Source of the DNA: Escherichia coli
GTDB lineage: Bacteria > Pseudomonadota > Gammaproteobacteria > Enterobacterales > Enterobacteriaceae
Length of the DNA: 64,000 nucleotides
Direction: 5' to 3' (one strand)
NCBI RefSeq assembly: GCF_041248615.1
Contig: NZ_CP158426.1
Below the pieces are notes generated by a model. It searched no databases. It was not told the DNA's origin and was given only the letters and a program-made list of their open reading frames with translations. A program made the translations under genes and the position numbers. Every line of letters begins with the position of its first letter. The first letter of the stretch is position 1. Shown piece after piece: positions 6,325 to 64,000 of the stretch.

Positions 6325-7499
6325 GCGTAATCATCGTCGGTGGCGGCATGGCGGGCGCGACGCTGGCGCTGGCTATTTCCCGGTTAAGTCACGGGGCGCT
6401 GCCGGTACATTTGATTGAAGCGACTGCGCCAGAGTCACATGCTCATCCGGGCTTTGATGGACGAGCGATAGCGCTGGCGGCGGGTACCTGTCAGCAACTG
6501 GCGCGCATCGGCGTCTGGCAATCTCTGGCGGATTGCGCAACTGCCATCACCACCGTGCATGTCAGCGATCGTGGTCACGCTGGATTTGTCACCCTTGCCG
6601 CAGAAGATTACCAACTGGCGGCGCTGGGACAGGTTGTCGAATTGCACAATGTCGGGCAACGGCTGTTTGCATTGCTGCGTAAAGCACCTGGCGTAACGCT
6701 GCATTGCCCTGATCGCGTGGCTAACGTTGCCCGTACTCAGAGTCACGTTGAAGTGACGCTGGAGAGTGGCGAGACGCTGACGGGCCGCGTGCTGGTAGCC
6801 GCTGATGGCACCCATTCAGCGTTAGCCACCGCGTGCGGCGTTGACTGGCAGCAGGAGCCTTACGAACAACTGGCAGTGATTGCCAACGTTGCTACTTCTG
6901 TTGCGCACGAAGGCCGCGCTTTTGAACGCTTCACGCAACATGGCCCGCTGGCGATGTTGCCGATGTCTGACGGACGCTGTTCGCTGGTCTGGTGTCATCC
7001 ACTGGAACGGCGCGAAGAGGTGCTGTCGTGGAGTGACGAGAAGTTTTGCCGTGAGCTCCAGTCGGCCTTTGGCTGGCGACTTGGAAAAATTACCCACGCC
7101 GGTAAACGCAGTGCTTATCCGCTGGCGTTAACCCGCGCCGCCAGAGCTATTACCCATCGTACCGTGCTGGTGGGCAATGCGGCGCAAACCCTGCACCCGA
7201 TTGCCGGGCAAGGGTTCAACCTCGGTATGCGAGATGTGATGAGTCTTGCGGAAACCCTGACTCAGGCGCAGGAGCGCGGAGAAGACATGGGGGATTACGG
7301 CGTATTGTGCCGTTATCAGCAGCGTCGACAGAGCGATCGCGAAGCAACCATCGGCGTCACGGACAGCCTGGTACATCTTTTTGCCAACCGTTGGGCACCG
7401 CTGGTTGTCGGGCGCAACATCGGACTGATGACGATGGAATTATTCACCCCGGCACGCGATGTGCTGGCGCAGCGCACCCTCGGTTGGGTGGCGCGTTGA
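6321..7499 (+). CDS. ubiH: 2-octaprenyl-6-methoxyphenol hydroxylase
   Basis: 392-aa ORF MSVIIVGGGMAGATLALAIS...; 4-nt overlap with the pepP stop. Confidence 0.95.
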   Translation: MSVIIVGGGMAGATLALAISRLSHGALPVHLIEATAPESHAHPGFDGRAIALAAGTCQQLARIGVWQSLADCATAITTVHVSDRGHAGFVTLAAEDYQLAALGQVVELHNVGQRLFALLRKAPGVTLHCPDRVANVARTQSHVEVTLESGETLTGRVLVAADGTHSALATACGVDWQQEPYEQLAVIANVATSVAHEGRAFERFTQHGPLAMLPMSDGRCSLVWCHPLERREEVLSWSDEKFCRELQSAFGWRLGKITHAGKRSAYPLALTRAARAITHRTVLVGNAAQTLHPIAGQGFNLGMRDVMSLAETLTQAQERGEDMGDYGVLCRYQQRRQSDREATIGVTDSLVHLFANRWAPLVVGRNIGLMTMELFTPARDVLAQRTLGWVAR

Positions 7500-7521
7500 A
7501 GGCGGTTTTAAGGAATAAACA

Positions 7522-8724
7522 ATGCAAAGTGTTGATGTAGCCATTGTTGGTGGCGGCATGGTGGGGCTGGCGGTTGCCTGCGGCTTACAGGGGAGCGGCT
7601 TACGCGTTGCCGTACTGGAGCAGCGCGTACCGGAACCTCTGGCGGCGGATGCACCACCACAACTGCGCGTTTCGGCTATCAATGCCGCCAGCGAAAAATT
7701 ACTCACCCGTCTTGGCGTCTGGCAGGACATTCTCTCTCGTAGGGCCAGTTGTTATCACGGTATGGAAGTGTGGGACAAAGACAGTTTTGGTCACATTTCG
7801 TTTGACGATCAAAGCATGGGCTATAGCCATCTTGGGCATATCGTTGAAAACTCAGTGATTCACTACGCGCTGTGGAACAAAGCGCAGCAGTCGTCAGATA
7901 TCACTCTGTTGGCCCCCGCAGAATTACAGCAGGTCGCCTGGGGAGAAAATGAAACTTTCCTGACGCTGAAAGATGGCAGCATGTTAACGGCGCGTCTGGT
8001 GATTGGCGCGGACGGTGCTAATTCCTGGTTGCGCAACAAAGCAGATATTCCGCTGACTTTCTGGGATTATCAGCATCACGCGCTGGTAGCGACCATTCGC
8101 ACGGAAGAACCGCATGATGCGGTGGCGCGGCAGGTTTTCCATGGCGAAGGCATTCTGGCCTTTTTACCGCTTAGCGATCCGCATCTTTGCTCAATTGTCT
8201 GGTCACTGTCGCCAGAGGAAGCGCAGCGGATGCAGCAGGCAAGTGAAGATGAATTTAATCGCGCGTTAAATATCGCTTTTGATAATCGCCTGGGCTTATG
8301 CAAGGTTGAGAGCGCGCGTCAGGTGTTCCCACTGACGGGGCGTTATGCGCGCCAGTTTGCCGCGCACCGTCTGGTGCTGGTGGGCGACGCCGCGCATACC
8401 ATTCACCCGCTGGCGGGGCAGGGAGTAAATCTCGGCTTTATGGATGCTGCAGAGCTGATTGCTGAACTGAAACGGTTGCATCGTCAGGGGAAAGACATCG
8501 GGCAGTACATTTACCTGCGCCGGTATGAGCGTAGCCGCAAGCACAGTGCGGCGCTGATGCTGGCTGGTATGCAGGGATTCCGCGATCTGTTTTCCGGTAC
8601 CAATCCGGCGAAAAAACTGCTGCGTGATATTGGTTTGAAACTGGCCGACACGCTTCCTGGCGTTAAACCACAACTTATCCGCCAGGCAATGGGATTAAAC
8701 GATTTGCCTGAATGGCTGCGTTAA
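7522..8724 (+). CDS. ubiI: 2-octaprenylphenol hydroxylase (VisC)
   Basis: 400-aa ORF MQSVDVAIVGGGMVGLAVACGLQ..., FAD-binding GXGXXG motif. Confidence 0.95.
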   Translation: MQSVDVAIVGGGMVGLAVACGLQGSGLRVAVLEQRVPEPLAADAPPQLRVSAINAASEKLLTRLGVWQDILSRRASCYHGMEVWDKDSFGHISFDDQSMGYSHLGHIVENSVIHYALWNKAQQSSDITLLAPAELQQVAWGENETFLTLKDGSMLTARLVIGADGANSWLRNKADIPLTFWDYQHHALVATIRTEEPHDAVARQVFHGEGILAFLPLSDPHLCSIVWSLSPEEAQRMQQASEDEFNRALNIAFDNRLGLCKVESARQVFPLTGRYARQFAAHRLVLVGDAAHTIHPLAGQGVNLGFMDAAELIAELKRLHRQGKDIGQYIYLRRYERSRKHSAALMLAGMQGFRDLFSGTNPAKKLLRDIGLKLADTLPGVKPQLIRQAMGLNDLPEWLR

Positions 8725-8767
8725 AAATTTCTCTTCTGCTGTTTATTTGATACCCATCACACTTTCA

Positions 8768-8797
8768 TCTCCCGGTTTTTTCGCCGGGAGATTTTCC
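8768..8797 (+). terminator. rho-independent terminator after ubiI
   Basis: hairpin tctcccgg-ttttttcg-ccgggaga followed by T-rich tract. Confidence 0.7.
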
Positions 8798-8799
8798 TC

Positions 8800-9170
8800 A
8801 TTTGAAATAAACTAATTTCACCTCCGTTTTCGCATTATATTTTCTAATGTCATTATTTTTTGATTTAGTGTTTTTTGACATTTTTTTAGCTCTTAATATT
8901 GCCTTATTCAAATTAGCTTTCTAATGGCATCATCTTTATATAGAAACTGGTGTGTTTTTTGGTTTTTTATTCTGTCGCGATTTTGGCGTTTTTTAACCAT
9001 AAGCTAATGTGATGATCAATTTTACCTTATGGTTAACAGTCTGTTTCGGTGGTAAGTTCAGGCAAAAGAGAACGATTGCGTTGGGGACCGGGAGTGGCTC
9101 CGATGCTGGGTTTCGTGGTGATAATTTCACCATGAAAAGTTGTCAGCCCCGCTTATTCAATGAGGACAAG
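8800..9170 (+). promoter_or_regulatory. gcvTHP promoter/regulatory region (AT-rich; GcvA/Lrp/PurR sites expected here)
   Basis: long AT-rich spacer upstream of gcvT; specific binding sites not individually resolved by eye. Confidence 0.4.
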
Positions 9171-10265
9171 ATGGCACAACAGACTCCTTTGTACGAACAA
9201 CACACGCTTTGCGGCGCTCGCATGGTGGATTTCCACGGCTGGATGATGCCGCTGCATTACGGTTCGCAAATCGACGAACATCATGCGGTACGTACCGATG
9301 CCGGAATGTTTGATGTGTCACATATGACCATCGTCGATCTTCGCGGCAGCCGCACCCGGGAGTTTCTGCGTTATCTGCTGGCGAACGATGTGGCGAAGCT
9401 CACCAAAAGCGGCAAAGCCCTTTACTCGGGGATGTTGAATGCCTCTGGCGGTGTGATAGATGACCTCATCGTCTACTACTTTACTGAAGATTTCTTCCGC
9501 CTCGTTGTTAACTCCGCCACCCGCGAAAAAGACCTCTCCTGGATTACCCAACACGCTGAACCTTTCGGCATCGAAATTACCGTTCGTGATGACCTTTCCA
9601 TGATTGCCGTGCAAGGGCCGAATGCGCAGGCAAAAGCTGCCACACTGTTTAATGACGCCCAGCGTCAGGCGGTGGAAGGGATGAAACCGTTCTTTGGCGT
9701 GCAGGCGGGCGATCTGTTTATTGCCACCACTGGTTATACCGGTGAAGCGGGCTATGAAATTGCGCTGCCCAATGAAAAAGCGGCCGATTTCTGGCGTGCG
9801 CTGGTGGAAGCGGGTGTTAAGCCATGTGGCTTGGGCGCGCGTGACACGCTGCGTCTGGAAGCGGGCATGAATCTTTATGGTCAGGAGATGGACGAAACCA
9901 TCTCTCCTTTAGCCGCCAACATGGGCTGGACTATCGCCTGGGAACCGGCAGATCGTGACTTTATCGGTCGTGAAGCCCTGGAAGTGCAGCGTGAGCATGG
10001 TACAGAAAAACTGGTTGGTCTGGTGATGACCGAAAAAGGCGTGCTGCGTAATGAACTGCCGGTACGCTTTACCGATGCGCAGGGCAACCAGCATGAAGGC
10101 ATTATCACCAGCGGTACTTTCTCCCCGACGCTGGGTTACAGCATTGCGCTGGCGCGCGTGCCGGAAGGTATTGGCGAAACGGCGATTGTGCAAATTCGCA
10201 ACCGTGAAATGCCGGTTAAAGTGACAAAACCTGTTTTTGTGCGTAACGGCAAAGCCGTCGCGTGA
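9171..10265 (+). CDS. gcvT: glycine cleavage system aminomethyltransferase T
   Basis: ORF track 9009..10265; start refined to [13 protein letters not shown] (364 aa). Confidence 0.95.
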
Positions 10266-10288
10266 TTTACTTTTTTGGAGATTGATTG

Positions 10289-10678
10289 ATGAGCAACGTA
10301 CCAGCAGAACTGAAATACAGCAAAGAACACGAATGGCTGCGTAAAGAAGCCGACGGCACTTACACCGTTGGTATTACCGAACATGCTCAGGAGCTGTTAG
10401 GCGATATGGTGTTTGTTGACCTGCCGGAAGTGGGCGCAACGGTTAGCGCGGGCGATGACTGCGCGGTTGCCGAATCAGTAAAAGCGGCGTCAGACATTTA
10501 TGCGCCAGTAAGCGGTGAAATCGTGGCGGTAAACGACGCACTGAGCGATTCCCCGGAACTGGTGAACAGCGAACCGTATGCAGGTGGCTGGATCTTTAAA
10601 ATCAAAGCCAGCGATGAAAGCGAACTGGAATCACTGCTGGATGCGACCGCATACGAAGCATTGCTAGAAGACGAGTAA
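10289..10678 (+). CDS. gcvH: glycine cleavage system lipoyl-carrier protein H
   Basis: 129-aa [20 protein letters not shown]...; the first codon in the ORF track is TTG, ATG at 10289. Confidence 0.95.
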
Positions 10679-10796
10679 CGGCTTTATTCCTCTTCTGCGG
10701 GAGAGGATCAGGGTGAGGAAAATTTATGCCTCACCCTCACTCTCTTCGTAAGGAGAGAGGTTCACAATTCACTGCACGTTTCAGGAACCATCGCTC

Positions 10797-13670
10797 ATGA
10801 CACAGACGTTAAGCCAGCTTGAAAACAGCGGCGCTTTTATTGAACGCCATATCGGACCGGACGCCGCGCAACAGCAAGAAATGCTGAATGCCGTTGGCGC
10901 ACAATCGTTAAACGCGCTGACCGGCCAGATTGTACCGAAAGATATTCAGCTTGCGACCCCGCCGCAGGTTGGCGCACCGGCGACCGAATACGCCGCACTG
11001 GCAGAACTCAAGGCTATTGCCAGTCGCAATAAACGCTTCACGTCTTACATCGGCATGGGTTACACCGCCGTGCAGCTACCGCCGGTTATCCTGCGTAACA
11101 TGCTGGAAAATCCGGGCTGGTATACCGCGTACACTCCGTATCAACCTGAAGTCTCCCAGGGCCGCCTTGAAGCATTGCTCAACTTCCAGCAGGTAACGCT
11201 GGATTTGACTGGACTGGATATGGCCTCTGCTTCTCTTCTGGACGAGGCCACCGCTGCCGCCGAAGCAATGGCGATGGCGAAACGCGTCAGCAAACTGAAA
11301 AATGCCAACCGCTTCTTCGTGGCTTCCGATGTGCATCCGCAAACTCTGGATGTGGTCCGTACTCGTGCCGAAACCTTTGGTTTTGAAGTGATTGTCGATG
11401 ACGCGCAAAAAGTGCTCGACCATCAGGACGTCTTCGGCGTGCTGTTACAGCAGGTAGGCACTACCGGTGAAATTCACGACTACACTGCGCTTATTAGCGA
11501 ACTGAAATCACGCAAAATTGTGGTCAGCGTTGCCGCCGATATTATGGCGCTGGTGCTGTTAACTGCGCCGGGTAAACAGGGCGCGGATATTGTTTTTGGT
11601 TCGGCGCAACGCTTCGGCGTGCCGATGGGCTACGGTGGCCCACACGCGGCATTCTTTGCGGCGAAAGATGAATACAAACGCTCAATGCCGGGCCGTATTA
11701 TCGGTGTATCGAAAGATGCAGCTGGCAATACCGCGCTGCGCATGGCGATGCAGACTCGCGAGCAACATATCCGCCGTGAGAAAGCGAACTCCAACATTTG
11801 TACTTCCCAGGTACTGCTGGCAAACATCGCCAGCCTGTATGCCGTTTATCACGGCCCGGTTGGCCTGAAACGTATCGCTAACCGCATTCACCGTCTGACC
11901 GATATCCTGGCGGCGGGCCTGCAACAAAAAGGTCTGAAACTGCGCCATGCGCACTATTTCGACACCTTGTGTGTGGAAGTGGCCGACAAAGCGGGCGTAC
12001 TGACGCGTGCCGAAGCGGCTGAAATCAACCTGCGTAGCGATATTCTGAACGCGGTTGGGATCACCCTTGATGAAACAACCACGCGTGAAAACGTAATGCA
12101 GCTTTTCAACGTGCTGCTGGGCGATAACCACGGCCTGGACATCGACACGCTGGACAAAGACGTGGCTCACGACAGCCGCTCTATCCAGCCTGCGATGCTG
12201 CGCGACGACGAAATCCTCACCCATCCGGTGTTTAATCGCTACCACAGCGAAACCGAAATGATGCGCTATATGCACTCGCTGGAGCGTAAAGATCTGGCGC
12301 TGAATCAGGCGATGATCCCGCTGGGTTCCTGCACCATGAAACTGAACGCCGCCGCCGAGATGATCCCAATCACCTGGCCGGAATTTGCCGAACTGCACCC
12401 GTTTTGTCCGCCGGAACAGGCTGAAGGTTATCAGCAGATGATTGCGCAGCTGGCTGACTGGCTGGTGAAACTGACCGGTTACGACGCCGTTTGTATGCAG
12501 CCGAACTCCGGCGCACAGGGCGAATACGCGGGCCTGCTGGCGATTCGTCATTATCATGAAAGCCGCAATGAAGGGCATCGCGATATCTGCCTGATCCCGG
12601 CTTCTGCGCACGGAACTAACCCCGCTTCTGCACATATGGCAGGAATGCAGGTGGTGGTTGTGGCGTGTGATAAAAACGGCAACATCGATCTGACTGATCT
12701 GCGCGCGAAAGCGGAACAGGCGGGCGATAACCTCTCCTGTATCATGGTGACTTATCCTTCTACCCACGGCGTGTATGAAGAAACGATCCGTGAAGTGTGT
12801 GAAGTCGTGCATCAGTTCGGCGGTCAGGTTTACCTTGATGGCGCGAACATGAACGCCCAGGTTGGCATCACCTCGCCGGGCTTTATTGGCGCGGACGTTT
12901 CGCACCTCAACCTGCATAAAACTTTCTGCATTCCGCACGGCGGTGGTGGTCCGGGTATGGGACCGATCGGTGTGAAAGCGCATCTGGCACCGTTTGTACC
13001 GGGTCATAGCGTGGTGCAAATCGAAGGCATGTTAACCCGTCAGGGCGCAGTTTCTGCGGCACCGTTCGGTAGCGCCTCTATCCTGCCAATCAGCTGGATG
13101 TACATCCGCATGATGGGCGCAGAAGGGCTGAAAAAAGCAAGCCAGGTGGCAATCCTCAACGCCAACTATATTGCCAGCCGCCTGCAGGATGCCTTCCCGG
13201 TGCTGTATACCGGTCGCGACGGTCGCGTGGCGCACGAATGTATTCTCGATATTCGCCCGCTGAAAGAAGAAACCGGCATCAGCGAGCTGGATATTGCCAA
13301 GCGCCTGATCGACTACGGTTTCCACGCGCCAACGATGTCGTTCCCGGTGGCGGGTACGCTGATGGTTGAACCGACTGAATCTGAAAGCAAAGTGGAACTG
13401 GATCGCTTTATCGACGCGATGCTGGCTATCCGCGCAGAAATCGACCAGGTTAAAGCCGGTGTCTGGCCGCTGGAAGATAACCCGCTGGTGAACGCGCCGC
13501 ACATTCAGAACGAACTGGTCGCCGAGTGGGCGCATCCGTACAGCCGTGAAGTTGCAGTATTCCCGGCAGGTGTGGCAGACAAATACTGGCCGACGGTGAA
13601 ACGTCTGGATGATGTTTACGGTGACCGTAACCTGTTCTGCTCCTGCGTACCGATTAGCGAATACCAGTAA
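10797..13670 (+). CDS. gcvP: glycine dehydrogenase (decarboxylating), P protein
   Basis: 957-aa [25 protein letters not shown]... Confidence 0.97.
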
Positions 13671-13692
13671 TTCACTGATTCGACTATCTTCT

Positions 13693-13715
13693 AAAGGCGC
13701 TTCGGCGCCTTTTTA
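13693..13715 (+). terminator. rho-independent terminator after gcvP
   Basis: hairpin aggcgc-ttcg-gcgcct followed by tttt. Confidence 0.8.
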
Positions 13716-13740
13716 GTCAGATGACAAAGTACAAAAGCGC

Positions 13741-13858
13741 TCAGACAGTCCCCTCACCCCTTTGGGGAGAGGGTTAGGGTGAGGGGAACAGGCCGGCACT
13801 GGCGCGAATATTTACCCTCACCCCGGCCCTCTCCCTGAAAGGGCGAGGGGAAAAGCGT
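13741..13858. repeat. GC-rich imperfect palindromic intergenic repeat (Box C-like), two units
   Basis: cccctcaccc...gggtgagggg and ccctcacccc...gggcgagggg inverted motifs; a related gggtgagg...cctcaccc hairpin also lies between gcvH and gcvP (10710-10740). Confidence 0.5.
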
Positions 13859-13935
13859 GCCAACATTGAAGATTGAGCCAGTTTGTTAGCAATCTCAAAG
13901 ATACGTCAACGAATTAATTTTTCTCGGAAAAACAA

Positions 13936-14679
13936 ATGGCTATAGCACTTGTGACCGGTGGCAGTCGCGGCATCGGGCGGGCAACTGCATTACTGTTGGC
14001 GAAAGAAGAGTATACGGTGGCGGTTAATTATCAACAAAACCTCCATGCGGCGCAGGAAGTGGTGAACTTAATCACGCAAGCCGGTGGCAAGGCATTCGTG
14101 CTCCAGGCGGATATCAGCGACGAAAATCAGGTCATCGCAATGTTTACAGCAATCGATCAGCACGATGAACCGCTAGCAGCGCTGGTCAATAACGCCGGGA
14201 TCTTGTTTACCCAGTGCACCGTTGAAAACCTTACCGCAGAGCGAATCAACCGAGTACTTTCCACCAACGTGACGGGATATTTTCTCTGCTGCCGCGAGGC
14301 GGTAAAACGCATGGCGCTTAAAAATGGTGGCAGTGGCGGCGCTATCGTCAATGTCTCTTCGGTGGCCTCACGGTTGGGTTCGCCAGGGGAATATGTTGAT
14401 TACGCGGCATCGAAAGGGGCGATTGATACGTTAACCACCGGACTATCGCTGGAAGTCGCCGCGCAGGGGATCCGCGTTAACTGCGTGCGGCCAGGGTTTA
14501 TTTATACCGAAATGCACGCCAGCGGCGGCGAGCCTGGACGCGTCGATCGCGTTAAGTCGAACATCCCCATGCAGCGTGGTGGGCAGGCAGAAGAGGTCGC
14601 GCAGGCCATTGTCTGGCTACTAAGTGATAAAGCCTCTTACGTCACGGGAAGTTTTATCGATTTGGCGGGCGGGAAATAA
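13936..14679 (+). CDS. ygfF: short-chain dehydrogenase/reductase (SDR family)
   Basis: 247-aa ORF with TGGSRGIG Rossmann motif. Confidence 0.9.
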   Translation: MAIALVTGGSRGIGRATALLLAKEEYTVAVNYQQNLHAAQEVVNLITQAGGKAFVLQADISDENQVIAMFTAIDQHDEPLAALVNNAGILFTQCTVENLTAERINRVLSTNVTGYFLCCREAVKRMALKNGGSGGAIVNVSSVASRLGSPGEYVDYAASKGAIDTLTTGLSLEVAAQGIRVNCVRPGFIYTEMHASGGEPGRVDRVKSNIPMQRGGQAEEVAQAIVWLLSDKASYVTGSFIDLAGGK

Positions 14680-14697
14680 AACAGGGAAGTTGTCTGA

Positions 14698-14723
14698 CCG
14701 GATGCAACAAGTATTGCATCCGG
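14698..14723. terminator. bidirectional hairpin between convergent ygfF and bglA
   Basis: perfect palindrome ccggatgcaa-caagta-ttgcatccgg. Confidence 0.6.
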
Positions 14724-14735
14724 TACTTCATCGAC

Positions 14736-16196
<1,461 letters not shown>

Positions 16197-19974: not shown

Positions 19975-20871
19975 GTGAAACAGGATCTGGCACGCATCGA
20001 GCAGTTTCTTGATGCTCTGTGGCTGGAAAAAAATCTGGCTGAAAATACGTTGAACTCTTACCGTCGCGATCTGTCAATGATGGTGGAGTGGTTGCATCAC
20101 CGCGGGTTGACGCTGGCGACGGCGCAAAGTGACGATTTGCAGGCATTACTGGCAGAACGGCTGGAGGGCGGGTATAAAGCCACCAGCTCAGCGCGTTTGC
20201 TGAGTGCAGTGCGCCGATTGTTCCAGTATCTTTATCGCGAAAAGTTTCGTGAAGACGATCCCAGTGCGCATCTCGCTTCACCGAAATTGCCCCAGCGTTT
20301 GCCAAAAGATTTAAGCGAAGCGCAGGTCGAACGTTTATTACAGGCACCATTAATTGATCAGCCACTGGAGCTACGCGATAAAGCCATGCTTGAAGTGTTG
20401 TATGCTACCGGGCTGCGTGTCTCTGAACTGGTCGGACTGACAATGAGTGATATCAGCCTGCGTCAGGGCGTAGTGCGGGTCATTGGTAAAGGCAACAAAG
20501 AGCGCCTGGTACCGTTAGGTGAAGAGGCGGTTTACTGGCTGGAAACCTATCTGGAACATGGGCGTCCGTGGCTGCTGAATGGTGTGTCAATTGACGTGTT
20601 GTTTCCCAGCCAGCGTGCGCAGCAGATGACGCGACAGACCTTCTGGCACCGCATTAAACATTATGCTGTGCTGGCGGGTATCGACAGCGAAAAGCTGTCA
20701 CCGCATGTGTTGCGTCACGCTTTTGCCACTCATTTATTAAATCATGGTGCGGATTTACGCGTGGTGCAGATGCTACTGGGCCACAGCGATCTTTCCACCA
20801 CGCAAATTTATACGCATGTCGCTACCGAGCGTCTGCGACAACTTCATCAACAGCATCACCCGCGGGCGTGA
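19975..20871 (+). CDS. xerD: site-specific tyrosine recombinase XerD
   Basis: 298-aa GTG-initiated ORF MKQDLARIEQFLDALWLEKNLAENTL... with C-terminal RHRY-type catalytic region. Confidence 0.95.
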   Translation: MKQDLARIEQFLDALWLEKNLAENTLNSYRRDLSMMVEWLHHRGLTLATAQSDDLQALLAERLEGGYKATSSARLLSAVRRLFQYLYREKFREDDPSAHLASPKLPQRLPKDLSEAQVERLLQAPLIDQPLELRDKAMLEVLYATGLRVSELVGLTMSDISLRQGVVRVIGKGNKERLVPLGEEAVYWLETYLEHGRPWLLNGVSIDVLFPSQRAQQMTRQTFWHRIKHYAVLAGIDSEKLSPHVLRHAFATHLLNHGADLRVVQMLLGHSDLSTTQIYTHVATERLRQLHQQHHPRA

Positions 20872-32630: not shown

Positions 32631-33950
32631 TTAGTTGCGTTCGTACACCAGACGACCATCAACGTAGGTGCGGTAGATCGAACGGTCATCGCCCAACGTC
32701 ATCATCACGAACAATTTGTCGACTAAAGAAACAGAGTTGTCATAGCGCAGCTGCTGTAGCGGAGTGGCGGTGGGTTCCATCACCACGAAATCAGCCTCTT
32801 TGCCAGGTAAAAAGTTGCCAATCAAATCGTCAAGGCCCAGAGATTTCGCTCCGCCGAGCGTGGCCAGGTAAAACGCTTCATATGCCGAGAGGCGATAGCC
32901 TTGTAATTGCAATACTTTGTAGGCTTCGTTCAGCGTTTGCAGCATGTTGAAAGTGGTTCCGGCACCGATATCCGTTCCCATGCCCACTTTAACTTTCTTC
33001 TGCCATGCTTTTTTCAAGTTGAATAAGCCGCTGCCGAGGTAAAGGTTGGAGGTCGGACAGAAAGCAATGCTGGATTTGGTTTCGCTGAGACGATCCCACT
33101 CTTTTTCTTCGAGATGGACGCAGTGAGCAAAGACACAGTTTTTACCGGTCAGGCCGTACTGATGGTAAACATCCAGATAACCATCATGGTCAGGATAAAG
33201 CGATTTCACCCAGGCAATTTCATCTTTGTTTTCACAGAGATGGGTATGTACCCACGTATCCGGATATTCTTCTTTCAGGCGTTGCGCCATCGCCATCTGT
33301 TCAGGAGATGAGGTCGGGGCGAAGCGTGGCGTAATCGCATATAGCAGACGACCATTTTTGTGCCAGCGTTCGATCAGTTCTTTGCTTTGGTGATAGCTGC
33401 TTTCGGCAGTGTCGAGCAGATAATCCGGTGCGTTGCGGTCCATCATCACCTTACCGGCAATCATACGCATATTGATATGACTGGCGGCTTCAAACAGCGC
33501 ATCAACAGATTGCGGATGAACAGTGCCAAACACCAGCGCCGTGGTGGTTCCGTTACGTAAAAGCTGCTTGATGAAGAACGCCGACATTTCGCGGGCGTAC
33601 TCTAAATCCTCATAACGACGTTCAGTAGGGAAGGTGTGTTTATTCAACCACTCCAGCAATTGCTCACCATAGGCCCCCACCATTTCACTTTGCGGATAAT
33701 GGATATGTGTATCGACAAAGCCCGGTACTATCAGTTTGCCGCGATAGTCGCGCACGCGAATGGTGTCAGGAATTTGATGCTTTCCGTTTTCCCATTCGCC
33801 AAACCATTCCACTTTTCCCTGTTTAATGAGTAATAAACCATCCTCAATAAACCGCAGCGCAGAGGCAATCTCTTCCGGGTTATCGATCGTACGGGTGACA
33901 TCAATAAAACTGCCTCGTACCGCTTTTAACGTGTGTTCTCCTGACATCAT
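32631..33950 (-). CDS. guaD: guanine deaminase
   Basis: ORF track 32631..34070; start refined to MMSGEHTLKAVRGSF (439 aa). Confidence 0.92.
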   Translation of the reverse strand: MMSGEHTLKAVRGSFIDVTRTIDNPEEIASALRFIEDGLLLIKQGKVEWFGEWENGKHQIPDTIRVRDYRGKLIVPGFVDTHIHYPQSEMVGAYGEQLLEWLNKHTFPTERRYEDLEYAREMSAFFIKQLLRNGTTTALVFGTVHPQSVDALFEAASHINMRMIAGKVMMDRNAPDYLLDTAESSYHQSKELIERWHKNGRLLYAITPRFAPTSSPEQMAMAQRLKEEYPDTWVHTHLCENKDEIAWVKSLYPDHDGYLDVYHQYGLTGKNCVFAHCVHLEEKEWDRLSETKSSIAFCPTSNLYLGSGLFNLKKAWQKKVKVGMGTDIGAGTTFNMLQTLNEAYKVLQLQGYRLSAYEAFYLATLGGAKSLGLDDLIGNFLPGKEADFVVMEPTATPLQQLRYDNSVSLVDKLFVMMTLGDDRSIYRTYVDGRLVYERN

Positions 33951-60658: not shown

Positions 60659-60732
60659 GCGGGCGTAGTTCAATGGTAGAACGAGAGCTTCCCAAGCTCT
60701 ATACGAGGGTTCGATTCCCTTCGCCCGCTCCA
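60659..60732 (+). tRNA. glyU: tRNA-Gly (anticodon CCC)
   Basis: GCGGGCGTAGTTCAATGGTAGAACGAGAGCTTCCCAAGCTCTATACGAGGGTTCGATTCCCTTCGCCCGCTCCA; cloverleaf with anticodon loop CUUCCCAAG and encoded CCA. Confidence 0.95.
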
Positions 60733-60747
60733 GAATCTCCCCTGGTG

Positions 60748-60770
60748 GAGAAGACTAAAAAAGTCTTCTC
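60748..60770 (+). terminator. hairpin after glyU
   Basis: gagaagac-taaaaaa-gtcttctc perfect stem; no clear T tract. Confidence 0.5.
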
Positions 60771-61229
60771 TGTCAGCAACTTAAACAGTTACCTATTTAA
60801 TTTGCTTAGGAGTTCTACCATTGTGATCCGCCCTTAGTAACTGTCACGTTAAGTTACACGGTGAGATGACAGTATAACCTAACGTTGGCGGCAGTTGCAC
60901 CTCTCACACCGCGATAGCACAACGTGAAGATAAAGCCCATCCTGGCATTGTAATGTCATCGACAGACTGAACACACGCATTTAAGCCCGATGTGCGGCCT
61001 TGTGGCTGCGTAAACAGGTTTATGGTGATATTGGTCCTTGCAAACCATATGCAAGCTCTATCAGCGTTTCAGCCACGCTCCCAACGGGTACACGGTTATC
61101 CTGATAAGGTGTGATCTTTCTGACAATCTGATGAAGTCGCTACGCTCCCGCTTGTTGCTGTATCACCAACGGGGCTTTATGGTTTCTATTGTCTATAATA
61201 ATCTCACAATTCCCCTGCATGAGGTTGAT

Positions 61230-61436
61230 ATGACTGTTAGCTACAAGATTACTTATGAGCATAGAGACGGTGATCAAATTAGAATGGAAGAGGTTTTATT
61301 CCATTCAGAGCATGAACCAACAAAAGATGAAATTCATGATGCAGTAAGAAAAGATACTGTGAGATTTAATTCTCCATCTAATGGAGTAACGGCTGTTTCA
61401 GGGTTTAAAGTGATTTCGGTTGTCCCTGTTCCATGA
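61230..61436 (+). CDS. hypothetical small protein (68 aa)
   Basis: ATG preceded by gagg SD; the longer 132-aa version of ORF 61038..61436 has no convincing start context; convergent hairpin at the 3' end. Confidence 0.35.
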   Translation: MTVSYKITYEHRDGDQIRMEEVLFHSEHEPTKDEIHDAVRKDTVRFNSPSNGVTAVSGFKVISVVPVP

Positions 61437-61447
61437 ATGGTTATAGA

Positions 61448-61464
61448 AGGGGCTGGAAGCCCCT
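61448..61464. terminator. hairpin between the convergent small ORF and lipoprotein gene
   Basis: aggggct-gga-agcccct. Confidence 0.5.
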
Positions 61465-61469
61465 AATTA

Positions 61470-61790
61470 TTACTTCTTAATATCGCCAGTGCATTGATAT
61501 TCGATAGTCACAAGTGTTTGCATACAACCAGATGAAGAAGGTTGTGAACATTGAGAAGTGAATCCACCAAAAGGCTCGGCTCCTGAATATCCCCAAGCGG
61601 CACAACGCGCTTTGGCTGCATTCATGCCTTGTTGTGGATCTACAACAGGACTTTCAAACATACCGTAAGAATAACTCATCCTAACTGTGCCGTCTGATTT
61701 GCTTCCACCAGTTGGAACGAGTTGTTTTTTTGTTGCACATCCAGAAATAATCAATGTTGAAGCAAGTAACAGCATTAAACTTTTGCGCAT
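61470..61790 (-). CDS. cysteine-rich predicted lipoprotein (106 aa)
   Basis: signal peptide with lipobox LIISGC; four further Cys in the mature part; no family recognised. Confidence 0.6.
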   Translation of the reverse strand: MRKSLMLLLASTLIISGCATKKQLVPTGGSKSDGTVRMSYSYGMFESPVVDPQQGMNAAKARCAAWGYSGAEPFGGFTSQCSQPSSSGCMQTLVTIEYQCTGDIKK

Positions 61791-62442
61791 GTAAATAATC
61801 CCAAGAGATAATGGTTATGTATTGATTTAAAGCGTTTTTAGATTAATGCATTAACTTAGCAAAATTAAGTCTTTTCTGATTGTTTGCAGAGTAAAAATGA
61901 GTTGCTTTCGAAATTATTTCGGATGTTTATTGTATTACGGTTTTTCAAACCGTCTAACTATTGTCGCTATTGAATGGGCAATAATAGCAAGAGGATTCAT
62001 TTCGTCATTGGAGGCAACAAAAAGTCGGTAACTGATAGCTACAACGAATGAAGCAATAACGAGAAAGCGGATAGTGCTAAGATGTTTTGAAGATAAATGC
62101 ATAACGCCCCCTAAATGAATGTGAGGGGGATTAAATCATGCAAATTTGTTGTGTGCAATACTGGTAATTTATCCTAATAGTCTACTATTCACCTCAATCT
62201 ACGTCAACCAATATTTGATGTAGATTTGATTTTCTTTTAAAAACAATATTTTGCAATTTGTTGGGTTTTGGGGTTAGGTTGTTTTTTGGACGTTTCCATC
62301 AAGTGTAAAGATACGTTTAGCCTTCATAGTGAGTTCAGTTACTGTCTTTTTCTCTGAAATCGGCGCATACGTGATCATCGCTTAACGAGAAGAGCAGCGC
62401 CGTCAGGTCCATGCAGCGACAATTCTGAAATATCAGGAGGCA

Positions 62443-62994
62443 TTACGCTTCCTGCTCTTTCTTGATACGTTGCACCGTTTGTGTGCTGACACTGAAATCT
62501 TTTGCTACGCTCCGAATTGATCCACCATTCGCGAGAGCGGCAGCAATTCCCGCTCGATCAATTGCTTTTCCATTACCACGTTTTGCTATACGTCCAGCGG
62601 CCTTAGCTGCGGCGATCCCCTCACGCTGGCGCTCAAGCATCATTTCACGTTCCATTTGTGCCACTGCTGCAAGCACTGTGAGCATCATATTCCCTGCGGG
62701 AGAGTTCTTCCCTGTCTTAAAGTCTTCTTTATGGAAATGCACAGACACGCCGCGCTTTGTTAATTGCTCAACCGTTGCCAGTAGGTCGGCTGTATTACGG
62801 CAAAGTCGATCAATACTGTGAACATGCAAAACATCACCTTCCCGCACATAGTTCATCATTGCCTCAAACTGTGGGCGCTGGGTATTCTTGCCTGACGCTT
62901 TATCTTCAAAGACTTTATCAAGAGCTACTCCAGCTAATTGACGGTCTGTGTTTTGTTGCACAGTCGATACCCTAATGTATCCAATATTAGCCAT
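62443..62994 (-). CDS. serine recombinase, resolvase/invertase family (183 aa)
   Basis: N-terminal catalytic motif GYIRVSTVQQNTDRQ with the active-site Ser, FEDKASG, DRLCR, and a C-terminal HTH (GGSIRSVAKDFSVSTQTVQRI). Confidence 0.85.
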   Translation of the reverse strand: MANIGYIRVSTVQQNTDRQLAGVALDKVFEDKASGKNTQRPQFEAMMNYVREGDVLHVHSIDRLCRNTADLLATVEQLTKRGVSVHFHKEDFKTGKNSPAGNMMLTVLAAVAQMEREMMLERQREGIAAAKAAGRIAKRGNGKAIDRAGIAAALANGGSIRSVAKDFSVSTQTVQRIKKEQEA

Positions 62995-63019
62995 TTTCTT
63001 TATTCCTTCTGTGTTGATT

Positions 63020-63130
63020 TGTGTGTAGTGATTATTGATCGTGTTGATTAGGTGTGTAAAGGACTTTTTTCACTACGAAATTCGAAGGTTTTTAGTGTGG
63101 TGATTTAGCCTGCTTTATCACTACACGTCT
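63020..63130. promoter_or_regulatory. structured inverted-repeat region upstream of the recombinase gene (candidate res-like / autoregulatory site)
   Basis: 10-bp perfect inverted repeat gtgtagtgat (63023-63032) / atcactacac (63117-63126), internal cactac/gtagtg motifs, and a central cgaaattcg palindrome (63076-63084). Confidence 0.4.
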
Positions 63131-63516
63131 TGCATGAGAATCATGTAGTTACATTTTGGTAAAATTAGCAAGCTATTAAATAGTGTGTTTATTTTGAAAA
63201 AATAATTTTTTGTTGCATTAAAGGAAACTTGTTCAATAAATGATAGAACGTTTATTGAGCAACAATTTTGCAGTGATGCGCTATATGCCGCATTACATAA
63301 GGCTTTGCTGATGATAATGTAAAAGTGAAGAAAGCTAACATTGCTCTTTTAAGCTACTTTTCATTGAATTTTTAGTATGGAATTACATAGGGATAAACTA
63401 TGAATATTCTATGATTTACACGAGATATTCTTGCTGTTTAATTCCGGCTTTGGAGATCAGGCATTCGCAAGAATACGCTAACGCGTTGCCTGAAAAGCCA
63501 TTGCACATAATAGAGG

Positions 63517-63835
63517 TGAGCGTATAGCGAACTATCAATGTGATCATTGCACGAATGATAATGAGTGGATATAGATTCTATATATCGTTAGATTGTAGTT
63601 TGATAGTTAATGTGTAATGTAGATTGTATGAGCGTATAGCGAATGTTAGTTAGATCAACAACAAACTAACCTTTAAATCTCTTTTATCTTCTCATAGATA
63701 TGGCTATGCGTAGCAACCGAAGGTTAGCCAATCATCTCTATGCAGCCGTAAGGCTGTTTTGCATGTAATAGTTGTTTGTTGTTGTTAGACAGTTACCAAT
63801 TTATAGATCAGAGATAGATGTGAGCGTTGAGCGAT
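63517..63835 (+). repeat. iteron-like direct repeats (3 copies)
   Basis: tgagcgtatagcgaa at 63517-63531 and 63629-63643 (exact), degenerate tgagcgttgagcgat at 63821-63835. Confidence 0.6.
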
Positions 63836-63924
63836 ACACTAATCATAACAACATCTTCTTACTTTTTAGTTAGTTGTTAGTAGGTTATTGTTATGCGCGC
63901 TATTAGCGCATGTATAAAGGTATC

Positions 63925-63999
63925 ATTTTTATCTAAAGGGCTTTAGACATTTTTGATACCTTTTTCATCTCTAAAAAAGTGTAATTTTTATCTAAAGGG
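63925..63999 (+). repeat. short tandem direct repeats atttttatctaaaggg
   Basis: exact 16-mer at 63925-63940 and 63984-63999, with a degenerate copy tttttcatctctaaaaaa between them. Confidence 0.6.
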
Positions 64000-64000
64000 G

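Follow-up and report, generated by a model that had tools for sequence, protein, structure and literature searches.

Several groups of described systems provide a frame for the DNA found behind glyU, the tRNA-Gly gene of Escherichia coli analyzed here. The type III secretion island ETT2, known from K-12 as a remnant, from O157 and from enteroaggregative E. coli (EAEC) 042, occupies a glyU-adjacent site and is made up of AT-rich accessory DNA; in EAEC 042, one of its ends is formed by a GH15 gene (PMC2808357). Comparative papers list either a prophage or a genomic island at glyU (PMC8767318; 10.1101/860726). A second group is formed by phage satellites, such as the P4-like elements, the phage-inducible chromosomal islands (PICIs), their capsid-forming variants (cfPICIs) and PLE, the satellite of the virulent myophage ICP1 in Vibrio cholerae, while a third includes small serine recombinases acting on their own sites, like the Tn3 and gamma-delta resolvase-res systems and the Hin/Gin inversion systems. 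The segment in question, positions 60733-64000, closes a 64,000-nt stretch of E. coli DNA (contig NZ_CP158426.1), hereafter the window, and begins directly behind glyU. It is very probably the glyU-proximal arm of a defective 13.5-kb integrative phage-related element.

The whole window is identical to positions 1024001-1088000 of the chromosome of E. coli NRZ14408 (NZ_LT599825.1). Upstream of glyU lie xdhA and ygeR/actS. Right behind the tRNA gene the sequence alignment to K-12 breaks off; GC content is 0.393, versus 0.514 in positions 1-60732, where the lowest value over 288 sliding windows of 3268 nt is 0.457, and coding density is about 0.40, even including an unannotated small open reading frame (ORF). 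No ORF of 60 aa or more is present in the last 1,006 bases (62995-64000). At least 80% of the segment is found in only 90 of 5,426 complete E. coli genomes, the set on which all genome counts are based. The segment is accessory DNA at a tRNA integration site. A preliminary description, made from the letters alone, had noted this switch at glyU to AT-rich, gene-poor and strain-specific DNA, together with a resolvase-type recombinase, a Cys-rich lipoprotein, a small ORF and about 1 kb devoid of longer ORFs, and these points were borne out by the figures above and, for the genes, by Pfam searches and translations. It had also placed an ETT2 remnant at glyU in K-12, where the order is indeed glyU-ygeQ-ygeP-IS2-ygeO...yqeI-yqeH-yqeG, and had taken the content for an insertion other than ETT2. 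No type III secretion system (T3SS) gene was found in it, and alignment to the ordinary ygeQ/ygeP segment of K-12, which had been envisaged as the contrary outcome, did not occur.

The borders of the element are defined by a short sequence located at the very end of the tRNA gene:

60659..60732, plus strand: glyU, tRNA-Gly(CCC), the integration target (ARAGORN; Rfam tRNA, 71.6 bits)
60711..60732, plus strand: core of the left attachment site (attL), corresponding to the 22-nt tRNA 3' end TCGATTCCCTTCGCCCGCTCCA, with an exact second copy in relatives

The preliminary description had suggested looking for a second copy of the glyU 3' end, in direct orientation, at the far border of the island, and one was found in two relatives. 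In the O26:H11 strain FWSEC0001 (locus L002; L-numbers designate extracted loci, L001 being NRZ14408) exact copies are located at 19979-20000 and 33471-33492, 13,492 bp apart, and in strain Ec-FL1-1X (L052) they are found at 15979 and 29523. A 406-aa tyrosine integrase (PHROG 1, E 1.5e-38) is encoded in the O26:H11 element on the minus strand, just inside the right attachment site (attR), at the tRNA-distal end. Both relatives' repeats and this integrase, contained within them, are the features by which integrative elements are recognized. The genes following the segment in FWSEC0001 are, in this order, small ORFs, a 221-aa winged-helix protein, a 342-aa capsid-like protein, a Xis/AlpA-like protein and a 613-aa tape-measure-like protein. 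The 221-aa protein, Rep-like, features a winged helix-turn-helix (HTH) and no primase domain; the small Xis/AlpA-like HTH protein was recognized by a weak match (E 0.009). A second gene-free stretch, of about 880 nt, separates the small early ORFs from the capsid module (L002 27322-28201).

The relationship to ETT2 is best seen in Ec-FL1-1X. This strain encodes a recombinase protein identical to the one of NRZ14408, and its full element is followed by GH15, eivF and sctC, in an apparently intact ETT2. Behind the second copy of the 22-nt repeat stands ATTTATCTTC, the 10 bases with which the glyU flank of K-12 begins. Since attR is followed by this flank and then by ETT2, the element was inserted between glyU and ETT2. 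In O26:H11, ETT2 is degraded and is separated from the element by another island, which encodes an integrase of its own. The preliminary description was therefore right in proposing a different insertion at the ETT2 position, but ETT2 has not been replaced: the element was placed between glyU and its GH15 end.

In NRZ14408, glyU is followed by a hypothetical gene, yecR, the recombinase gene, 2.5 kb, IS1, a truncated yqeI, yqeH, yqeG and core genes. Past the window end, 1.5 kb contain no annotated genes; IS1 and a yqeI pseudogene lacking its C-terminus follow. Similarity to the intact elements ends at L001 7506, where the IS1 inverted repeat GGTAATGAC starts, and the ends of IS1 are located at L001 7507 and, inside yqeI, at 8274. 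The 9-bp sequences flanking IS1 are unlike each other (cactaaaaa and gacaaatgc), which points to a deletion rather than to a simple insertion. Only the attL copy of the 22-nt repeat is present, attR is missing, and no T3SS apparatus or regulator genes (eiv, epa, epr, ygeH and others) were found between glyU and yqeI, while they are present beyond attR in both Ec-FL1-1X and O26:H11. Among the 5,426 genomes, NRZ14408 itself is the only one matching across the IS1 junction. The island is thus cut by the window end, as previously noted, and in the genome itself it is cut a second time, by the IS1 located 1.5 kb past that point, so that the full gene content of the island is known from relatives only.

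These data suggest the following course of events. The tyrosine integrase would insert the element into the 22-nt core at the 3' end of glyU, rebuilding the tRNA at attL and leaving a 22-nt copy at attR, beside the GH15 end of ETT2. IS1 would then have deleted about 9 kb of the element, i.e. the right two thirds with the initiator-like, capsid-like and tape-measure-like genes, the integrase and attR, together with the entire ETT2, as far as the middle of yqeI. The loss of ETT2 from NRZ14408 would be explained by insertion of the element at glyU, followed by a single IS1-associated deletion of both. The resulting remnant, presumably unable to excise, replicate or move, would consist, starting from glyU, of the left att arm, cargo genes (for the 85-aa protein, the YecR lipoprotein and the 55-aa peptide), the recombinase with its octamers, block A and a block of iterons and palindromes. 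These features are located as follows:

60733..61178, no strand: left arm of the element, GC 47%, lacking a convincing ORF (divergence from K-12 after the tRNA)
61179..61436, plus strand: 85-aa hypothetical protein WP_024017360, cargo (RefSeq annotation)
61470..61790, minus strand: YecR-family lipoprotein, 106 aa, five Cys, cargo (Pfam PF13992, E 2.2e-23)
61935..62102, minus strand: 55-aa hydrophobic (membrane) ORF, unannotated, downstream of the recombinase gene (conserved protein frame)
62443..62994, minus strand: serine recombinase of the resolvase/invertase type, 183 aa, full length (Pfam, PHROG)
63011..63124, no strand: res-like array of six octamers GT[AG][GT]TGA[AT], four forward and two reverse, across the recombinase promoter (motif count)
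63199..63421, no strand: block A, noncoding, left edge of the conserved core (conservation across the family)
63406..64000, no strand: start of the variable block, with hairpins, palindromes and iterons, a putative replication origin, ending at about 64268, past the window (repeats, folding)
63916..63963, no strand: 23+2+23 palindrome AAAGGTATCATTTTTATCTAAAG GG CTTTAGACATTTTTGATACCTTT (inverted repeat I10; direct repeats D2 and D4)

The remnant, extending over 4.8 kb, is one representative of a larger family. Some part of it is matched in 822 of the 5,426 genomes, about 15% of complete E. coli. A comparison was performed with 48 related loci, collected from E. coli genomes, from IMG/VR and by a metagenome scan with a conserved 31-nt pattern. 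Three integration sites were recognized: glyU, with an element of 13.5 kb (L002 20001-33492); thrW, with one of about 12 kb (L004, strain D8, 13158-~25300); and the thiamine pyrophosphate (TPP) riboswitch of thiM, with one of 8.4 kb (L006, strain TUM12355, ~6946-15366), the latter lacking structural genes. Between members, the region from the att site to about 63199, in window coordinates, is a zone of variable cargo. Among the metagenome contigs, L018 starts exactly at a tRNA-Thr gene and L022 contains one 22 nt from its end; those of about 12.6 kb show no terminal overlap of at least 20 nt and are hence not circular. The exact 31-nt pattern, searched in 100,044 species-representative genomes, was found in one E. 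coli contig, with no spread beyond E. coli at that stringency. Literature searches retrieved nothing on this element family or on satellites of Stephanstirmvirinae, the phage subfamily discussed below; the family is apparently undescribed, and the label of possibly uncharacterised insertion, given earlier, appears right.

Within the cargo zone, the left arm probably corresponds to the att/integrase arm region, and the first ~460 nt are found alone in some genomes (H56, H57). The first 45 nt (60733-60777), which include a hairpin, GGAGAAGAC...GTCTTCTC, are also located behind glyU in O157:H7 (97.8% identity, H70), though O157 does not contain the element. The 5' part of glyU has an inverted copy (GTTCTACCATTGTGATCCGCCC, 82% complementary) 80 nt past the tRNA, at 60812-60833, which may be due to chance or be an old tRNA fragment. 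The 85-aa protein has no match in Pfam, PHROGs, NCBIfam or PADLOC, and none of the four proteins of the segment is matched by PADLOC. A signal peptide and the lipobox LIISGC can be read from the translation of the YecR-family lipoprotein. Pairs of ORFs with the lengths and spacing of these two genes (101/106 aa) occur in L025 and L044 as well, while in L026 only the 106-aa ORF is present. The frame of the 55-aa ORF is kept, with 58-60% protein identity, in relatives of the thrW type, where it is annotated as WP_000550450.

The recombinase displays the layout of small serine recombinases, with an N-terminal catalytic domain (Pfam Resolvase, residues 4-135, E 1e-38) and a C-terminal HTH (144-180). 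It matches PHROG 125 at E 8e-62, and its best solved homologues are the Tn3 and gamma-delta resolvases, matched over the full length (E 2e-27); the alignment to the Tn3 resolvase spans 179 residues and includes the serine of the N-terminal VST motif, as read from the alignment. Six octamers are clustered in 115 bp next to the gene, versus about 0.1 expected, an enrichment of ~60-fold over the 48-kb locus, which contains 40 of them on both strands; they overlap a promoter-like site on the minus strand (L001 5061-5032). A different repeated motif is found at the equivalent place in L006, a relative with a different serine recombinase. The array could thus represent a res-like site, used for autoregulation of the recombinase and for multimer resolution of an excised, replicating circle. 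The slot at the left of block A is occupied by a serine recombinase in most relatives and by a 207-aa tyrosine recombinase (phrog_216, E 2e-28) in others, namely the metagenome contigs L016, L019, L023 and L048, where it lies ~0.6-1.2 kb left of block A; a few contain neither. Such non-orthologous replacement is expected if the slot must supply a small site-specific recombinase.

The noncoding DNA following the array is made up of two parts with opposite patterns of conservation. Block A is conserved, with 77-90% identity, in all 36 loci whose sequence extends that far, whatever lies to its left. Its variants differ by single-base indels and have no ORF in common; a small ORF, open in some of them, was considered and rejected, as single-base indels interrupt it, or a start is missing, in others. 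The variable block is found in glyU-type elements only, while the thrW type contains a different block of ~270 nt with repeats of its own, and the Rep-like proteins of the two types share 24-33% identity. As the block differs together with the type of Rep-like protein, it would correspond to an origin with type-specific iterons, bound, in the case of the remnant, by an initiator now lost; the Rep-like protein matches the replication-initiator PHROGs 270 and 391. The block contains three copies of the repeat TGAGCGTATAGCGAA and tandem units of 23 and 60 nt. The palindrome at 63916..63963 belongs to the first of two tandem units of ~60 bp, the second of which starts at 63972 and is cut at the window end; one copy of this unit is present in O26:H11 and two in NRZ14408, within DNA which is otherwise 99.8% identical. 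Folding of the block gives a z-score of -4.1 on both strands, which suggests symmetry at the DNA level, due to palindromes.

Other signals were observed in the noncoding DNA. The heptamer ATTGCAC occurs six times in that of the element, versus 0.4 expected, at window positions 62153, 63500 and 63546 and at L001 6597, 6719 and 6736: two copies just left of the repeat core of the variable block are in forward orientation, the three at its right and the one beyond the recombinase gene in reverse. Past the window, at L001 7220-7365 (alignment A6), a sigma-70-like promoter, TTGACA-17-TATTGT, is kept in all members and is followed, after ~60 nt, by a hairpin with a T-run, supported by two compensatory base pairs in one variant, and then by the first ORF. 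The arrangement resembles that of a promoter-proximal terminator or of a short leader RNA, and it suggests an attenuated early operon.

A connection with virulent phages was revealed by comparing the family, through local tblastn, to the whole genome of phage muut (L056), a Justusliebigvirus of the Stephanstirmvirinae. Two adjacent early genes are shared, their counterparts being neighbors in the family as well, with gp095 similar to a 56-aa ORF of the family (44%) and gp094 to the N-terminal domain of the Rep-like protein (75-88%). Among structural genes, the tape-measure protein (TMP) gp017 is similar to the tape-measure-like protein (27-30%) and gp018 to a 218-aa tail-tip-like protein of the thrW type (62%), with the phage order TMP-gp018 preserved. 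The capsid-like protein of the glyU type is weakly matched where the muut record begins (23% identity across 230 aa, E 9e-7) and, in a phage collection, is 24-26% identical to the major head protein of Stephanstirmvirinae phages; that of the thrW type has no phage match at E <= 1e-5. At the DNA level, one element shares 430 nt with muut at 94.9% identity and others share 167-261 nt at 90-96%, near-identical patches which indicate recent exchange with rV5-like phages. The noncoding 2.4 kb have no blastn match among 50,697 phage records, nor did a sensitive local blastn reveal any between muut and the blocks A and Z. No terminase, portal or lysis genes were matched in scans of the element proteins: the virion and packaging set is incomplete, as in satellites, and is limited to the capsid-like, the tape-measure-like and, in the thrW type, the tail-tip-like proteins.

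Some smaller similarities concern the same partners. Rep-like proteins end in YDSIPF, YDSLPF or DFDIPF (L002 24902-25567, L005 17636-18205, L006 14046-14708), tails resembling DDDIPF, the tip by which the E. coli single-stranded DNA-binding protein (SSB) recruits replication and repair partners, and may be tail mimics. The tRNA cluster of muut (L056 8243-11279) includes tRNA-Gly and tRNA-Thr, the isoacceptor types targeted by the elements; the glyU att core has no match of at least 12 nt with this phage. Patches of 46-48 nt, with 81-93% identity, connect L005 15397-15442 and L006 11034-11081 to muut 64295-64373; in the phage, they are located within a gene-free stretch of 1.8 kb between gp127 and gp126, which contains an annotated repeat, and in the elements within cargo or noncoding DNA.

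The most economical reading of these data is that the family consists of satellites of virulent rV5-like phages, or of islands interfering with them, a proposal for and against which the balance is, at present, even. A more detailed version is put forward tentatively: an undescribed family of E. coli satellites, 8-13.5 kb in size, would exploit Stephanstirmvirinae myophages (Justusliebigvirus, Phapecoctavirus), by using a copy of gp095/gp094 (of the latter, the N-terminal domain) as its own origin-binding initiator, which terminates in a D-x-I/L-P-F motif like that of the SSB tail, its own divergent capsid, tape-measure and tail-tip proteins, a recombinase resolving multimers and a noncoding control and origin region, including block A as a packaging signal or a helper-sensing site.

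Other explanations were considered. That family and remnant are decayed pieces of an ordinary temperate prophage, rather than a compact satellite-type element, is unlikely. Capsid-like, tape-measure-like and tail-tip-like genes are carried together with a tyrosine integrase, a prophage is listed at glyU in comparative work (PMC8767318), and decay could account for the unmatched terminase, portal and lysis genes. Nevertheless, the same compact layout of 12-13.5 kb, with intact genes and the att copies at either end, is repeated across hundreds of genomes and three different loci, and a single conserved architecture is not expected from random decay. Moreover, the structural homologues match only large virulent phages of the Stephanstirmvirinae, a subfamily in which no temperate members are known. 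The gene-free 1 kb of the window, 2.4 kb in full, might alternatively encode one or more structured noncoding RNAs, as in the RNA-based immunity of P4, a view considered very unlikely. The z-score of -4.1, several short hairpins with GNRA-like loops and repeated short motifs speak in its favor, and a short leader RNA is in fact likely further right, where the promoter and the conserved hairpin with two compensatory pairs are located. The same z-score on both strands is, however, what DNA palindromes would produce; Rfam detects, at E <= 1, nothing but the tRNA in both the remnant and the whole O26 element, RNAalifold, run on 28 block A variants, reveals no convincing structure on either strand, and conservation across the family is lowest where structure is strongest.

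The recombinase could also be a DNA invertase, and the repeat-rich noncoding stretch a phase-variable invertible switch. The best PHROG family is in fact named 'DNA invertase', Gin is found among the solved homologues, inverted repeats are abundant, and the alternative occupant of the slot is a tyrosine recombinase of ~200 aa, about the size of the FimB/FimE invertases. The prediction of this view is not borne out: minus-strand matches reveal no inverted segment of at least 60 nt among 49 related loci and near-identical genomes are colinear over 99-100%; in addition, Tn3 and gamma-delta resolvases outscore invertases and the half-site array adjoins the gene, as in res. A switch of this kind is hardly to be expected. 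Even less credit can be given to a leftover Tn3-type transposon or plasmid resolution cassette, independent of the neighboring element. It would fit a resolvase-type recombinase with an adjacent site array and the location of 29 of 963 matching places on plasmids, but neither a transposase nor terminal inverted repeats are present, and in every relative the recombinase is colinear with block A and the core behind it, inside a unit bounded by att sites. Finally, the shared chromosomal position might suggest that the segment belongs to ETT2 or to the ygeQ/ygeP DNA normally present in K-12, but this is refuted: the divergence from K-12 starts right after the tRNA, no T3SS gene is found inside, and in Ec-FL1-1X element and ETT2 stand side by side with attR in between.

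The interpretation of the remnant as the arm of a phage-related integrative element, with an origin and a resolution system, has to face contrary observations as well. DnaA boxes (TTWTNCACA, one mismatch allowed) are not enriched, being 14 versus 9.8 +/- 3.2 in shuffled sequences. For an origin and a regulatory region, a gene-free stretch of about 2.4 kb is long. The octamers are not grouped into three clean inverted pairs like those in the res site of Tn3, and the recombinase is missing from L005, L011 and L022, hence it is not essential to the element. The roles proposed for the res-like array and the origin are derived from sequence patterns, and the IS1-mediated deletion is reconstructed from its junctions.

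The remnant is by itself a dead end, and its value is that of a pointer to a frequent family of compact elements with a long noncoding control region. If the proposed lifestyle is true, the family would be relevant to the host range and efficacy of rV5-like phages, a group represented in phage therapy collections. The hypothesis is readily testable, as both phages (Bas60, muut) and element-bearing strains are available.

A comparison with the systems mentioned at the beginning reveals both shared and differing features. No gene is common to the element and ETT2, of which NRZ14408 keeps only yqeH and part of yqeI. With the Tn3 and gamma-delta systems it shares a 183-aa recombinase of the resolvase type and six half-site-like repeats across the promoter of the recombinase gene, but a transposase is absent, and both the half-site, GTRKTGAW, and its arrangement are unlike those of Tn3 res. 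The segment in two orientations which characterizes Hin/Gin systems was not observed in any of 49 loci. P4-like satellites, PICIs and cfPICIs share with the element integration at tRNA sites by a tyrosine recombinase, a size of 10-15 kb, a cargo zone at the att end and an AlpA/Xis-like HTH protein, the latter based on a weak match. In addition, one relative of the family (L009) carries a defence gene upstream of the core; its 236-aa product matches PD-T4-3, an anti-phage defence protein, at E 4e-127, and is encoded 4.3-5.0 kb left of block A. On the other hand, 17 proteins encoded by the O26 element, scanned against PHROG and NCBIfam, matched neither Sid, Psu, Delta and the alpha primase of P4, nor the Pri-Rep primase, terS and Rpp of PICIs; the portal, protease, terminase and connectors of cfPICIs were likewise unmatched, the element having a single capsid-like gene. 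Unlike in P4 and PICIs, the integrase is tRNA-distal, and the structural homologues belong to Stephanstirmvirinae rather than to P2 or lambdoid helpers. As far as its predicted genes tell, the architecture does not contain the features defining P4-like satellites, PICIs, cfPICIs or PLE. PLE resides in another host, has no detected genes in common with the element, and is characterized by a large serine integrase, a RepA_N initiator and Vibrio/ICP1 genes, in place of the tyrosine integrase acting here at tRNA and riboswitch sites. PLE itself is not known to encode homologues of capsid or tape-measure proteins. Both are nevertheless chromosomal islands of less than 20 kb with their own initiator and origin, the latter putative here, and both are tied to a large virulent myophage rather than to a temperate one, a tie suggested in the present case by gene sharing. 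The resemblance would thus be one of lifestyle, as deduced from genes: should the elements prove to be satellites, or islands interfering with phages, E. coli would have in them a counterpart of the PLE-ICP1 pair of Vibrio.

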